A stretch of DNA of 64,000 bases from NCBI GenBank assembly GCA_965219995.1, contig CBDCOX010000002.1, positions 5,056,001-5,120,000 on the forward strand. Direction: 5' to 3'. Under the pieces are notes generated by a model. The model saw nothing but the letters and a program-made list of their open reading frames with translations. It was not told the DNA's origin and did no database searches. The translations under genes and the position numbers were made by a program. Positions 42,033-45,683 of the stretch are shown piece by piece. The stretch is from Candidatus Latescibacterota bacterium. GTDB lineage: Bacteria > Latescibacterota > UBA2968 > GCA-2709665. Position 1 is the stretch's first letter, and each line of letters opens with the position of its first letter.

Positions 42033-42317
42033 ATGTCCGAAACCCTTCCCGTGGTCAGGCTCTTATCCAGGAACGACTGCCATCTGTGCGACGTCGCGAA
42101 AGGGCGCATCCGGGTGGCCGGTAGGCGTGTCCCGTTCCGTCTGGAGATCGTCGACGTCGATAGCGATCCTGAACTGGCCGCGCGATATACCGAACGGGTT
42201 CCCGTCGTACAGGTGAACGGTGAAGAGTTGTTTTCCTTCCGGGTCAACGAGAGGGTCCTGGTGCGAAAGCTGAAGTCGCTGTCGTCCCGGCCGAGGAGAA
42301 GCGATGGGTGGGGATGA
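42033..42317 (+). CDS. glutaredoxin-like protein (DUF836)
   Basis: CHLC motif and ARY..RVPV. Confidence 0.85.
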   Translation: MSETLPVVRLLSRNDCHLCDVAKGRIRVAGRRVPFRLEIVDVDSDPELAARYTERVPVVQVNGEELFSFRVNERVLVRKLKSLSSRPRRSDGWG

Positions 42318-43638
42318 TCTGTTCGCCGCGCTCGAACCGGAGGCGCCGCTTGCGGACCGGATGAGGCCGCGCTGCCTGGATGAGGTCCGCGGGCAGGATC
42401 ATCTCACGGCGGCCGGCGCGCCGTTTCGCAAGTTGATCGAAGGCGACCGCGCGCCGTCGATGATCTTCTGGGGGCCGCCCGGATCGGGAAAGACCACGCT
42501 GGCGCGTCTCGTGGCCGAGTCCACGGAGAGCCGGTTCGTTGCGTTCAGCGCGGTCACCTCCGGGGTGAAAGAGGTGAGGGAAATCGTCGCGCGCGCAAAG
42601 GGGGACCGCCGGACGGGGAGGCGCACCACCCTTTTCATCGACGAGATTCACCGGTTCAACCGGGCGCAACAGGACGCGTTTCTGCCGCATGTCGAAGACG
42701 GTACCATCAGTCTGATCGGAGCCACGACCGAAAACCCTTCATTCGAGGTGAACGCGGCATTGCTTTCGCGGATGCAGGTGTTCGTGCTGAATCTGCTGGA
42801 CGTCCCTGCAATATGCGATATTCTTGACGCCGCGCTTGCCGGCGACGGACGCGGGCTGCCGGACGTCAGCGCCGACCCGGATGCCCTGGAGGCGATTGCG
42901 GGCGCGGCGGAGGGAGACGCCCGACGCGCGTTGAATGTCCTCGAAATGGCCTCGGCGTCCCTGGGCCCGGGCGAACGGTTGTCCGTGGAATCCGTCAGGG
43001 CGGCGATGGGCGGCAAGGCGTTTCTGTACGACAAGAGCGGCGAGGAACACTACAATCTGATTTCGGCGCTTCACAAGAGTCTGAGGGACAGCGATCCGCA
43101 CGCGTCGCTCTATTGGCTGGCGCGCATGATGGAAGCGGGCGAACACCCGCACTACATCCTCCGTCGCATGGTCCGGTTCGCGTCGGAAGACATCGGGAAC
43201 GCCGACCCCAGAGCGCTTTCTGTTGCGCTGGCCGCAAAGGACGCGTACGATTTTCTGGGCAGCCCGGAGGGCGATCTGGCCATCGCGCACGCAGCCGTCT
43301 ATCTGGCCACCGCGGACAAGAGCAATTCGGTCTACGCGGCCTACGGCAAAGCGCGGAAGGATGTGATGGAACAGCCGAATCTTCCCGTGCCGATGCACCT
43401 CAGGAACGCGCCGACGGACCTGATGCAGGAGTTGGGATACGGACGGGGATACCAGTACGCGCACGACAATCCCGAGGGATTCGTGGCGCAGAGCCATCTT
43501 CCGGAAAATCTGCAGGGACGGGAATATTACCGACCCACCGATCGGGGATACGAGCAGCGCATCAGGGAATTGATGGACTGGTGGGATGCATTGAGAGCGC
43601 AAAAGTCGCAACTGGAAAGCACCCGGGACGACGGTTGA
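42304..43638 (+). CDS. rarA: replication-associated recombination protein A (MgsA)
   Basis: PLADRMRP, GPPGSGKTT, DEIHRFN, GATTENPSF, ISALHKS, SEDIGNAD and VPMHLRNAPT motifs. Confidence 0.97.
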   Translation: MGGDDLFAALEPEAPLADRMRPRCLDEVRGQDHLTAAGAPFRKLIEGDRAPSMIFWGPPGSGKTTLARLVAESTESRFVAFSAVTSGVKEVREIVARAKGDRRTGRRTTLFIDEIHRFNRAQQDAFLPHVEDGTISLIGATTENPSFEVNAALLSRMQVFVLNLLDVPAICDILDAALAGDGRGLPDVSADPDALEAIAGAAEGDARRALNVLEMASASLGPGERLSVESVRAAMGGKAFLYDKSGEEHYNLISALHKSLRDSDPHASLYWLARMMEAGEHPHYILRRMVRFASEDIGNADPRALSVALAAKDAYDFLGSPEGDLAIAHAAVYLATADKSNSVYAAYGKARKDVMEQPNLPVPMHLRNAPTDLMQELGYGRGYQYAHDNPEGFVAQSHLPENLQGREYYRPTDRGYEQRIRELMDWWDALRAQKSQLESTRDDG

Positions 43639-43679
43639 CGTTCAGGAAGTGCATCCGGGATTGTGTATATTACGGGGGG

Positions 43680-43872
43680 CGCCTGAAATCGGTGAGACGG
43701 GAGACGGGAGACGGTAGAAGACGTCATTGCCTGACCGGATGTTCCTATATGCCTTTGGCAAGCAATGAAACCGCAGGGCGCAATCACATCATCTCACGTC
43801 TTACGTCTACCCTCTCACCGCCTTTTACTGACCACTGGCCACTGTCCACTATCTACTGCTCTTGGTAATAAC
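43680..43872 (-). repeat. heptamer-bounded intergenic element, copy B (inverted relative to A)
   Basis: Reverse complement aligns end to end with 37512-37690, carrying about two extra GGAGACG heptamers. Confidence 0.9.
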
Positions 43873-43892
43873 GTCCAGAAGGGAGGCGAAAC

Positions 43893-43946
43893 ATGAGGCT
43901 GACCGCGACAATCCACCCGACCTATCCGCCTCCTGAGGGCTTCTGA
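43893..43946 (+). CDS. putative leader peptide MRLTATIHPTYPPPEGF
   Basis: Strong SD AAGGGAGG upstream of the ATG; 17 codons ending TGA; followed by a terminator. Confidence 0.5.
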   Translation: MRLTATIHPTYPPPEGF

Positions 43947-43990
43947 CGGATTCATAGCCGGTTATTTCACGACTCGATTGCCTCTCCGGA

Positions 43991-44023
43991 GCCGCGGGTA
44001 GGATTATGTCCCGTGGTTTTTTT
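43991..44023 (+). terminator. intrinsic terminator upstream of the sigma-region-4 gene (attenuator candidate)
   Basis: GCCGCGGG/CCCGTGGT stem followed by a T7 run. Confidence 0.7.
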
Positions 44024-44072
44024 GTGGCCGCAGGTGCGGTCTGTACGCAACACGGAGGAGACGATCGAGCTT

Positions 44073-44465
44073 ATGTATCATCCGGATTTCTGGGAAGTAC
44101 AGCTGGAACAACGCGAACTGGAAAAGGTCCCCAACGAGGACGGCCTCTGGTTCGAGTCGCGGGAAGACAGGCGGCTGCGATACATGTGGGAGGACCGGGT
44201 CGCGGCAGCGGCGTTGCGGATTCTCGCTGCGGTGCCGGGCTGCCTGACGGAAAAACAGAGGGAGGCGACGCTGCTGTATTTCTGCCACGGGAAGACGCAG
44301 CGCGAAATCGCGGAGATCATGGGAATTTCCAGGCGCGTGGTCAGCCAGCACCTTTTCGGTATTACGCGCGGCGGGCGGAAGGTGGGTGGCGCGGTACGTA
44401 AATTGAGAAAGTTCTGTAAGGATGAGGGGTTGGGATTCGGTGTCCGCGGATCCGCATCGTCCTGA
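44073..44465 (+). CDS. stand-alone sigma70 region-4 HTH protein
   Basis: LTEKQREATLLYFCHGKTQREIAEIMGISRRVVSQHL; no region 2 recognisable; start uncertain. Confidence 0.8.
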   Translation: MYHPDFWEVQLEQRELEKVPNEDGLWFESREDRRLRYMWEDRVAAAALRILAAVPGCLTEKQREATLLYFCHGKTQREIAEIMGISRRVVSQHLFGITRGGRKVGGAVRKLRKFCKDEGLGFGVRGSASS

Positions 44466-44480
44466 ACGTCGACAGCAGGT

Positions 44481-45683
44481 TCAGACCGCCCATCTTCGCA
44501 TCTTTTCTTCGTCAAGTTCAACGCCCAGCCCGGGCAGTTCGAAGGGTTCCAGCGTACCGTCCCGGTACCTGAACGGCGTTTTGCAGACGTCGTCCACCAG
44601 AAGGGCGGGCCCCACGAGGTCCGAGGGAACGGTGACGTTTTCGGATGCCACGGCGAGGTGCACGAATGCGGCGGTGCCGGGCCCCATTTCCACGGTGCTG
44701 CCCAGCAGCACGGGGATTCCCGCGGCCTGCGCGACGTGGATCAGGCGCTGGCTGCGCAGGATGCCGCCGGCCTGGGAGGGGATCAGGTTGAAGACGTCCA
44801 CGGCCCGGCGGCGCACGAGCGCCGTGGAGAAGCCATCGTCGAGATCGGCCACGTGTTCGATGATCTGGACGGGGGTCTGTTTCCTGACGCGCGCCAGCGA
44901 GCATGCCGCTGCATCGGCGTTCCTGTTGATCCGCTGGGGATCGTCGTTGGCCACGGCGCGATTCACCGCAACCACCGGTGTTTCGCATGCGTCGATGCCG
45001 GCCGCGGCCATATCCCGGATCTTTGCAATGGCTTCGTCCTCTTCCCACGCGCCGCTGGCGTCGGCCTTCAGATAGACGTCAGGGCCCGCCACCTCGCGGA
45101 ACCGCGCGATTCGTTCCAGGTCGCGTGAATGATCCTCGCCGACCTTCAATTTGAATGCGCGAAGTCCCCGCGAGACCATGGTTTGGATTTCCTCTTCAAG
45201 CGCGTCGAGCTCTTCGTGCAGCGAAAGGCCCCGCCGCATATAGGCGACCCAGCAGACGTGCACGCGTTCGTGACGGCGTCCGCCAAGGAGTTCGTACAGG
45301 GGGGCGCCGTAATGTTTTCCGGCCAGGTCGAGCAACGCGATCTCCACGCCGAACAGGATGAGACCCCGGAGCTCCGGGTGAATGCCGGCTGGCAGTTCCG
45401 CGGCGATACCCCTGTGCAAGGCGTGGCGATCGGCGACGTCTCCGTCCTTCAACTCCCGCAAGAGGAAATCGCACAGATCGGCGCCCGCGAGAGGGTTCAT
45501 GCGGTCCGCAATGTCCGGGACTTCGCCCAGCCCGACGTGCTCCGTATCCGTGAAGAACTCCAGAATCTGATATCTCGATCGACTCAGGTCCTCGTCGGGC
45601 TGGAGGCCCTGCGGATCCGCGGCATAGGTGGTGTAAATGCGCGGAACCGAGACTTCCCGCACGTGGATGTCGACGATCTTCAC
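44481..45683 (-). CDS. mandelate racemase/muconate-lactonizing enzyme family protein
   Basis: GLGE, EIALLDLAGK..GAPLYELLGG, FKLKVG and PGLGVELD motifs. Confidence 0.9.
   Translation of the reverse strand: MKIVDIHVREVSVPRIYTTYAADPQGLQPDEDLSRSRYQILEFFTDTEHVGLGEVPDIADRMNPLAGADLCDFLLRELKDGDVADRHALHRGIAAELPAGIHPELRGLILFGVEIALLDLAGKHYGAPLYELLGGRRHERVHVCWVAYMRRGLSLHEELDALEEEIQTMVSRGLRAFKLKVGEDHSRDLERIARFREVAGPDVYLKADASGAWEEDEAIAKIRDMAAAGIDACETPVVAVNRAVANDDPQRINRNADAAACSLARVRKQTPVQIIEHVADLDDGFSTALVRRRAVDVFNLIPSQAGGILRSQRLIHVAQAAGIPVLLGSTVEMGPGTAAFVHLAVASENVTVPSDLVGPALLVDDVCKTPFRYRDGTLEPFELPGLGVELDEEKMRRWAV

Follow-up and report, generated by a model that had tools for sequence, protein, structure and literature searches.

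A leader region in front of a gene for a small sigma region-4-like protein was analysed in a stretch of 64,000 nucleotides (nt) from a Candidatus Latescibacterota bacterium (assembly GCA_965219995.1, contig CBDCOX010000002.1, positions 5,056,001 to 5,120,000; this whole stretch is referred to as the window, and coordinates are those of the window unless another contig is named). The best explanation that we can offer, and to which we give roughly an even chance, is that the leader is a ribosome-dependent attenuator whose sensing strand is its own ribosome-binding site (RBS). Its four pairing strands are conserved among relatives, the antiterminator helix and the helix that masks the Shine-Dalgarno sequence (SD) of the gene covary, the alternative folds are mutually exclusive, and the element is single-copy and linked to the gene. 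A run of proline codons in the short open reading frame (ORF) of the leader looks like a by-product of this RNA pairing and not like a sensor. The parts of the leader and the gene, which encodes a helix-turn-helix (HTH) protein, are the following.

43879-43886, + strand: SD of the leader ORF, AAGGGAGG, read from the sequence
43877-43889, + strand: R1, SD1 of the leader ORF (AGAAGGGAGGCGA), the 5' strand of helix P1
43893-43946, + strand: leader ORF of 17 codons and a stop (ATG at 43893, TGA at 43944-43946), peptide MRLTATIHPTYPPPEGF
43923-43937, + strand: R2, the anti-SD strand UAUCCGCCUCCUGAG, codons Y-P-P-P-E within the 3' end of the leader ORF
43947-43960, + strand: P2, a small hairpin (CGG...CCG) right after the leader stop, seen by eye in minimum-energy folds
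43973-43991, + strand: R3, CUCGAUUGCCUCUCCGGAG, a CCUCC-GGAG strand abutting the 5' side of the terminator
43992-44023, + strand: T, an intrinsic-terminator-like hairpin followed by U7, read from the sequence (-12.3 kcal/mol)
44026-44041, + strand: P5, a small hairpin, GGCCGC-AGGU-GCGGUC, between the U-run and SD2
44054-44069, + strand: R4, the SD2 region of the main gene, GGAGGAGACGAUCGAG, the 3' strand of helix P3
44073-44465, + strand: main gene, coding for a sigma region-4-like HTH protein of 130 amino acids

The stem of T is formed by CCGCGGG (43992-43998) and CCCGTGG (44010-44016), seven pairs including one G-U, which enclose a loop of 11 nt and are directly followed by seven thymines at 44017-44023. 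A simple terminator scan returned no site at the leader because it allows loops of 3-8 nt. Within R2, CCGCCTCC (43926-43933) is complementary to GGAGGCG (43882-43888) of R1, and AGAAG/CTTCT lengthens the SD1:anti-SD helix, P1, in the minimum-energy fold. R2 has a second set of partners: in the antiterminator helix (AT) it pairs with CUCCGGAG of R3 and, beyond a CC bulge, with the 5' arm of the terminator and the first two bases of its loop (43984-44000). The 5' part of R3 pairs with the SD2 region (GGAGGAG at 44054-44060) in helix P3. The strong SD, the 17-codon ORF, the GC stem with its seven thymines and the gene of about 130 codons had all been reported in the initial annotation, as had the complementarity of the proline codons to the SD of the leader with its AGAAG/CTTCT extension, and each was recovered where it had been placed.

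The orthologue of the main gene was present in 53 of 61 related genomes. A species-representative collection yielded 101 stretches with the protein, and the best 80 of the 101 were used as loci; these are mostly titled Candidatus Latescibacterota, with some labelled Gemmatimonadota, Zixibacteria, Handelsmanbacteria, Planctomycetota or Poribacteria. Within 330 nt upstream of the gene, a strong SD and a start codon open a short ORF, near whose end lies a CGCCUCC-like strand; next come a CCUCCGGAG strand, a hairpin followed by a U-run, and finally SD2. This layout precedes the orthologue in 30 of 30 loci from the related genomes and in most of the 80 collection loci. No leader could be recognised in L101, the U-run is decayed in L065 and L067 of genus g6, and in seven of the eight loci labelled Poribacteria the U-run is absent while SD1, the ORF and the CCUC strands are kept. 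Of the unique upstream regions examined, only 10 lack a hairpin with a U-run in front of the gene. The check proposed in the initial annotation, whether the SD, the short ORF with its proline triplet and the terminator recur upstream of homologues, thus gave a divided answer: the SD, the ORF and the terminator are kept, and the triplet, found in 16 of 74 unique leaders, is not.

A covariance model of the 3' half of the leader (R3, terminator and SD2; 28 sequences, 101 positions) gave exactly one match per genome in 55 of the 151 genomes of the phylum. The matches were distributed over families f1 (14/18), f2 (25/30), f3 (12/64), f4 (2/2) and f9 (1/6), and the remaining nine families had none among the 151 genomes. 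For each of the 43 genomes that also belong to the orthologue set, the match adjoins the gene start; this adjacency is partly by construction, because the last three positions of the model are the start codon. The exact 15-mer that spans R3 and the 5' arm of the terminator is unique in the genome of the window. Judged from these sequence comparisons, the switch is found across a class of this uncultured phylum. The covariance models of Rfam 15, run on both strands of 43400-44600, gave no match at E up to 1.

For the analysis of helices, 55 of 75 unique leaders were aligned with MAFFT, leaving out L099, L106 and those rows from genus g6 and the L069 clade that were nearly identical to others. 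RNAalifold, run without a prior structure, returned only two consensus helices, P1 (SD1:anti-SD) and the core of P3 (CCUCC of R3 with SD2). P1 is almost invariant, with 92.7% of cells paired, and the GGAGG core of SD1 itself is nearly so. Conservation of P1 extends beyond that core: the C that follows GGAGG pairs with a G of R2 as CG in 53 of the 55 leaders, and in the L091-L097 clade the flanks of the helix covary, as judged by eye. The interior of P1 differs among clades in length and sequence.

AT was proposed by eye and then counted on the same alignment. Its cells were paired in 87.0% of cases, compared with 36.0-55.8% when the partners were slid by 1-3 columns. Changes on both sides of a pair were seen in 45 cells, compared with 19.3 +/- 3.4 in shuffles, none of 500 shuffles being as high, and 8 of the 14 pairs show such changes. 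The two pairs at the terminator loop covary (UA 20, GC 11, UG 5 for one; AU 20, UA 11, GU 8, GC 5 for the other), and they are informative because the loop bases have no partner within the terminator. The outer part of P3 had 53% of cells paired, with poor alignment between clades. Because MAFFT misaligns this part, duplex energies of cognate strands, taken from the same leader, were compared with those of non-cognate ones. Cognate duplexes were the better ones for P1 (-17.0 vs -15.7 kcal/mol), for AT (-22.1 vs -18.9 kcal/mol) and for P3 (R3:R4; -18.8 vs -15.5 kcal/mol), and in each case none of 5000 permutations was as good. The alternative folds that the initial annotation had expected at the leader are thus supported by the mutual exclusivity of P1 and AT, by covariation and by duplex energies. 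The small P5 hairpin shows changes on both sides at five of its six pairs, yet only 60.1% of its cells are paired in the MAFFT alignment. In other clades, examined by eye only, the leader stop codon sits inside a hairpin.

The effect of a ribosome on these folds was modelled by forcing a 30-nt stretch to be single-stranded while 43876-44023 was folded at equilibrium. With no ribosome, the probability of T was 1.00. When the P site was placed on leader codons 1-3, so that SD1 was covered, T fell to 0.00-0.01 and AT rose to 0.99. With the P site on codons 5-19, which include the three proline codons and the stop, T was again 1.00. Among the 75 unique leaders, T reached at least 0.7 without constraint in 40. 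With R1 blocked, 24 of these 40 strong-T leaders fell to a T of 0.3 or below, and with the block at the leader stop 38 stayed at 0.7 or above. The P3/T/P5 junction of the full-length leader is very stable, and SD2 had an unpaired probability below 0.3 in 52 of the 55 leaders.

We propose that the stretch 43877-44072 would act as a cis-acting, ribosome-dependent leader that controls the gene at two levels by means of the four strands. In the OFF state R1 would pair with R2 (P1), T would be formed, and R3 would pair with R4 (P3) and mask SD2. In the alternative state R2 would pair with R3, the 5' arm of the terminator and its first loop bases (AT), which would block T; R3 is common to AT and P3, and therefore AT would also free SD2. 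A 30S subunit or ribosome on R1 during transcription would keep R1 from taking R2, whereupon AT would form, RNA polymerase would read through, and SD2 would be open for a while. If loading were not prompt, P1 would form and the transcript would end at the U-run; a ribosome further on, at the proline codons or the stop, would cover R2, and T would form as well. The quantity sensed would be the occupancy of the leader's own RBS, that is, translation-initiation capacity or coupling, and not an amino acid. Since SD2 is masked at equilibrium regardless, the ON state could only be kinetic, co-transcriptional and transient. We infer from this scheme in which direction the gene responds and what the physiological signal is.

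Several results weigh against such a mechanism. The folding energy of the region is ordinary (z -0.44, a stability equalled or exceeded by 56 of 200 shuffles; z -0.80 in a second shuffle comparison), and since it is not exceptional, it is conservation that argues against a chance arrangement. Relatedness among the leaders inflates the shuffle and permutation controls, whose statistics are supportive and not formal, and part of the complementarity in P1 is unavoidable, as any SD pairs with any CCUCC. Nine of the 40 strong-T leaders keep T at 0.7 or more with R1 blocked. In 35 of the 75 leaders the terminator as assigned automatically does not dominate the fold; most of these come from genus g6, which has low GC content, and from part of the L069 clade. 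At equilibrium the R1 block opened SD2 in only 2 of the 52 masked leaders. The only evidence from RNA libraries consists of two metatranscriptome contigs, described below, for which carry-over of DNA is possible. Last, in minimum-energy folds of nascent transcripts AT was the favoured fold without any ribosome at ends 44000-44016, and the terminator state came back only at end 44023. By energy, AT alone (-16.1 kcal/mol) is better than P1 alone (-11.4 kcal/mol), and P1 plus T amounts to -23.75 kcal/mol. As AT is favoured without a ribosome, the default could be read-through and the logic reversed.

With the sign so reversed, uncoupled transcripts would read through by handover of R2 from P1 to AT, a ribosome moving in step with the polymerase would cover R2 and cause termination, and the gene would be induced when translation lags, as under stress, starvation or inhibitors. 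The nascent folds and the energies just given fit this version, as do the footprints on codons 5-19, every one of which gave T = 1.00, and an AT-like fold dominates without constraint in genus g6 (L023). It leaves P1 without a role, yet P1 is conserved beyond the SD core, its flanks covary in one clade, its cognate duplexes are better than non-cognate ones, and it is the first helix to form in nascent folds ending at 43940-43972. The conservation of P1 beyond the need of an SD implies that sequestering R2 matters, and for this reason we prefer the reading in which a ribosome on SD1 leads to read-through. How fast P1 is displaced is a kinetic matter beyond folding energies, and the reversed sign is therefore retained as unlikely rather than dismissed.

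In 72 of 74 unique leaders (the 75 without L099, in which no R2 core was found) the SD core is followed, at a distance of 4-8 nt, by a start codon whose frame runs open into R2; in the two exceptions, L014 and L093, a stop codon lies at the 5' edge of R2. The absence of a conserved leader ORF, which the initial annotation had named as grounds for giving up attenuation, was thus not observed. The 16S rRNA of the window's genome ends in CACCUCCUUUCU, the canonical anti-SD, and in this genome SD 4-mers precede 1384 of 4306 long ORFs, compared with 575 at a control position. R1 resembles a genuine RBS, and the leader ORF is probably translated.

These data also bear on control that would be independent of translation, with the leader a constitutive dampener, or the target of a factor (the HTH protein, another RNA-binding protein, a small RNA or temperature) acting at R1, R2 or R3, and with the short ORF incidental. 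Either form seems to us improbable. A start at SD spacing and an ORF that reaches R2 have been kept in nearly all leaders while peptide and frame drift, the variability of the P1 interior between clades argues against a ligand pocket, Rfam returned no match, and GC-rich helices of 7-8 base pairs look, in our judgement, too stable for a thermometer. What speaks for it is that SD2 is masked in 52 of the 55 leaders regardless of a leader ribosome, so that another opener may be needed, and that a conserved DNA motif further upstream suggests extra, possibly auto-regulatory, control.

The initial annotation had placed the sensing in the proline codons: ribosomes would stall at P-P-P under a shortage of elongation factor P (EF-P) or of Pro-tRNA and thereby select the fold. 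EF-P-dependent stalling is strong in a PP-E/G context. Of the 15 leaders from the window's genus, 14 carry PPP or PPR precisely at R2 (PPR in the close relative L002), and PPP lies on R2 also in L016, L064 and L086. By occupying R2, a ribosome stalled there would promote T, and in the window's genus PPP could tune the clearance of R2. Across the 74 unique leaders, in contrast, R2 is read as PPP in only 16, as PP in 19, and without consecutive prolines in 39, where it is read as S-S-P, P-S-P, S-A-S, F-A-S, L-A-S, R-L-R, C-L-P and others. According to the predicted leader peptides, different lineages translate the R2 strand in all three frames (P/S-P-P, A-S, R-L). The proline triplet that the initial annotation had looked for upstream of homologues is, in short, not conserved, and in the close relative L014 a TAA stands just before the proline codons.

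No leader residue is conserved across the clades of these 74 leaders, and no sign of purifying selection on the peptide was found in the window's genus, where pairwise comparison gave 62 synonymous and 377 non-synonymous codon differences, and codons 2-10 have 5, 8 and 5 variable sites at codon positions 1, 2 and 3. The proline codons are a one-frame reading of CCGCCUCC. All of their bases are constrained by pairing in P1 and AT, except the wobble base of the third proline codon, which faces a mismatch and varies as U, A or C. In the equilibrium model, moreover, placing the P site on codons 12-14 gave T 1.00 and AT 0.00, identical to the fold without translation. The feature that appears to be kept is an RBS with an ORF that carries ribosomes across R2, and not an amino-acid sequence. 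We consider polyproline sensing to have only a slim chance. What stands of the initial proposal, attenuation of a sigma-like regulator, is the conserved leader with its terminator-like hairpin and alternative folds; the sensing of proline supply or EF-P is not supported.

It is very improbable that the locus joins a gene for a small protein or small RNA, complete with a terminator, to an unrelated gene with an ordinary SD-masking hairpin, since, even though the leader ORF and terminator would give a free-standing transcript of about 150 nt and a second locus of this genome (below) has the same upstream motif with a similar SD and ATG, a 12-codon ORF and a terminator, the covariation of AT ties the leader ORF to the terminator, P3 spans the terminator, the single-copy element always adjoins the main gene, and the leader peptide is not conserved. 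An independent promoter between terminator and gene, another finding that the initial annotation had thought fatal, did not turn up: a promoter scan found no promoter-like site in this interval, where 49 nt separate the U-run from the ATG.

The element was compared with known regulators. Attenuators of the trp, his, pheA and ilv type have a short leader ORF, a terminator and a mutually exclusive antiterminator. The present leader likewise has an ORF with its own SD, an intrinsic-terminator-like hairpin before the gene and a predicted, exclusive AT that uses the 5' arm of the terminator. It also follows the same logic of three outcomes (without a ribosome, 1:2 pairing and a terminator; with a ribosome held on strand 1, 2:3 pairing; with a ribosome further on, a terminator again), which was reproduced by the footprint-constrained folding of the window's leader. 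In contrast to these attenuators, strand 1 is the SD and start region of the leader and not a set of regulatory codons; no regulatory codons for a sensed amino acid were found in the 74 leaders, no amino acid being consistently enriched and the frame over R2 varying by lineage. The gene codes for an HTH protein and not for a biosynthetic operon, and a second lock masks its SD.

This second lock recalls erm and cat, where attenuation is translational, and ermK, where it acts on transcription as well. Shared with them are a leader ORF, four strands, masking of the main SD by strand 3 and, as proposed here, its release by 2:3 pairing; with ermK the leader would also share control of both transcription and translation. 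The differences from erm and cat are the lack of a conserved arrest peptide and of a resistance gene, the identity of strand 1 with the SD itself, and the rarity with which a strand-1 block opens SD2 at equilibrium (2 of 52 masked leaders). The leaders mgtL and mgtP of the Salmonella mgtA and mgtCBR loci contain proline codons, and in the window's genus consecutive proline codons also lie on an alternatively pairing strand. Here, unlike in mgtL and mgtP, these codons are not conserved (PPP in 16 of 74), the terminator is intrinsic, the regulated gene is unrelated, and the modelled stall on them equals the default fold.

For the Escherichia coli ampC attenuator, Jaurin et al. 1981 reportedly proposed that ribosome binding at a minimal leader RBS couples read-through to growth rate. 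In ampC, as proposed here, ribosome loading on a leader RBS and not the decoding of codons decides whether the terminator forms. In ampC the ribosome reportedly interferes with the terminator stem itself, while in the present leader the action would be indirect, through a freed anti-SD that forms an antiterminator; the ORF of 17-40 codons and the second, translational lock are further differences. A review (PMC11024256) describes ampC as having a strong attenuator. Taken together, the element would by analogy join the workings of a trp-type attenuator to an SD mask of the erm type. A literature search, mostly of titles and snippets, found nothing on this element.

Two groups of relatives depart from the typical leader. 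Genus g6 (L022-L030, L051-L067) has low GC content, a weak hairpin before the U-run and a long R3:SD2 helix that is kept; it may rely on the translational lock alone. Loci L103-L110, labelled Poribacteria, have a strong SD, a leader ORF of 27 codons and two GUGCCUC strands, one of which forms a local hairpin over SD2. As far as their sequences tell, the latter follow the same plan in another phylum, but without the terminator.

The main-gene product was examined with Pfam and NCBIfam models. The only Pfam families above cut-off were Sigma70_r4 (E 7.4e-9) and Sigma70_r4_2 (E 7.9e-9), both covering residues 57-95 of 130. No family in either collection matched the N-terminal 55 residues or, anywhere in the protein, sigma-70 region 2; only region-4 and HTH models matched, as the initial annotation had described it, and the NCBIfam model TIGR02937 scored 38.8, below its cut-off of 42.9. 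The AlphaFold2 model (mean predicted local distance difference test score, pLDDT, 81.7) has a long N-terminal helix, an HTH and a small beta-hairpin. In a Foldseek search of the PDB the best rows were region-4 domains of extracytoplasmic function (ECF) sigma factors, all of them weak (E 0.012 or worse), with none at E 0.001 or better. Most sources label the protein a sigma-70 family factor; as it has no region 2, we would not class it among the sigma factors. Twenty-six homologue sequences have 26 invariant columns, from MYNPDFWE onward. All 26 begin at MYNPDFWE, which identifies ATG 44073 as the true start and led to rejection of GTG at 44013 as a candidate start. Two paralogues from genus g6 (L111 and L112, 35-43% identity to the HTH protein) have a different leader in the 330 nt upstream, with a TTGACA-type promoter, two GCCGCTAATAACGG hairpin copies and a T-run; a local CCCTCTCC/GGAGG hairpin covers their SD.

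The rarA/mgsA gene lies upstream of the leader (42304-43638, + strand), and a convergent enolase-superfamily gene lies downstream of the main gene. Two further features were found between rarA/mgsA and SD1.

43649-43667, + strand: DNA motif GTGCATCC-N6-GTGTA, a candidate operator or promoter element
43685-43825, no strand assigned: imperfect palindromic repeat of about 140 nt, resembling a miniature inverted-repeat transposable element (MITE) or a repetitive extragenic palindromic (REP) sequence, with inverted arms at 43690-43730 and 43780-43820

In 49 of the 80 loci, Poribacteria-labelled ones included, the motif precedes the orthologous gene by 270-400 nt. It is kept whatever the upstream gene, rarA being upstream in only 30 of the 80. 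Allowing a spacing of N5-7, it was found at 84 places in 41 related genomes, compared with 11 for a reversed control, and its other sites recur within the genus. The motif may serve a small regulon as an operator or a special kind of promoter, and the HTH protein itself may bind it. By eye, a promoter-like sequence, TTGACA-N17-TAnnnT, was seen 30-40 nt after the motif in L016-L020, L022-L030 and L065; in the window's genus no such site was evident by eye between the motif and SD1. A second copy of the motif is found at 1197474-1197492 of contig 2 of the window's genome. In that region (about 1197470-1197760) the motif is followed about 100 nt on by AAAGGAGGCGAATCATG, which is very like SD1 with its ATG, then by a 12-codon ORF (MKEMNTRRVAGR), a strong terminator and a convergent gene for a sigma-like protein of 366 amino acids.

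The repeat has 209 blastn matches in the genome and a depth of DNA contigs in about 30-fold excess, and contigs break at its ends. It lies between motif and SD1 in the window's genome only and is absent from the closest relatives, L002 and L003. The 43690-43820 hairpin was accordingly rejected as a structured RNA, being a repeat of more than 100 copies that is missing in relatives. Most matches from RNA libraries fall on this repeat. The two metatranscriptome contigs mentioned above, both from relatives, bridge the repeat into the leader ORF (43746-43939 with 5 mismatches, and 43677-43956 with 8) and are compatible with a transcription start upstream of SD1. No contig from an RNA run was seen downstream of 43971, which proves nothing.

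On these grounds we put forward, as a tentative and on balance doubtful extension, that the leader senses free-ribosome or initiation capacity. Capture of SD1 by a 30S subunit within about 45 nt of transcription would decide both read-through and the unmasking of SD2, the HTH regulator would be made only with prompt ribosome loading, and it may bind GTGCATCC-N6-GTGTA sites and so govern a small regulon.

To our knowledge, Candidatus Latescibacterota has no cultured, genetically tractable member, and its gene regulation is almost unstudied. The leader adds to it a well-defined cis-regulatory RNA, supported by covariation, present in single copy and tied to one conserved small regulator. It also carries a caution, in that a striking PPP in a leader peptide can arise from SD/anti-SD pairing. 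In the reading preferred here, classical four-strand attenuator logic would use the leader's own RBS as the sensing strand, and a single antiterminator would couple the terminator to the SD mask. If confirmed, this would be a clean natural case of control by ribosome loading and not by codon-specific stalling.

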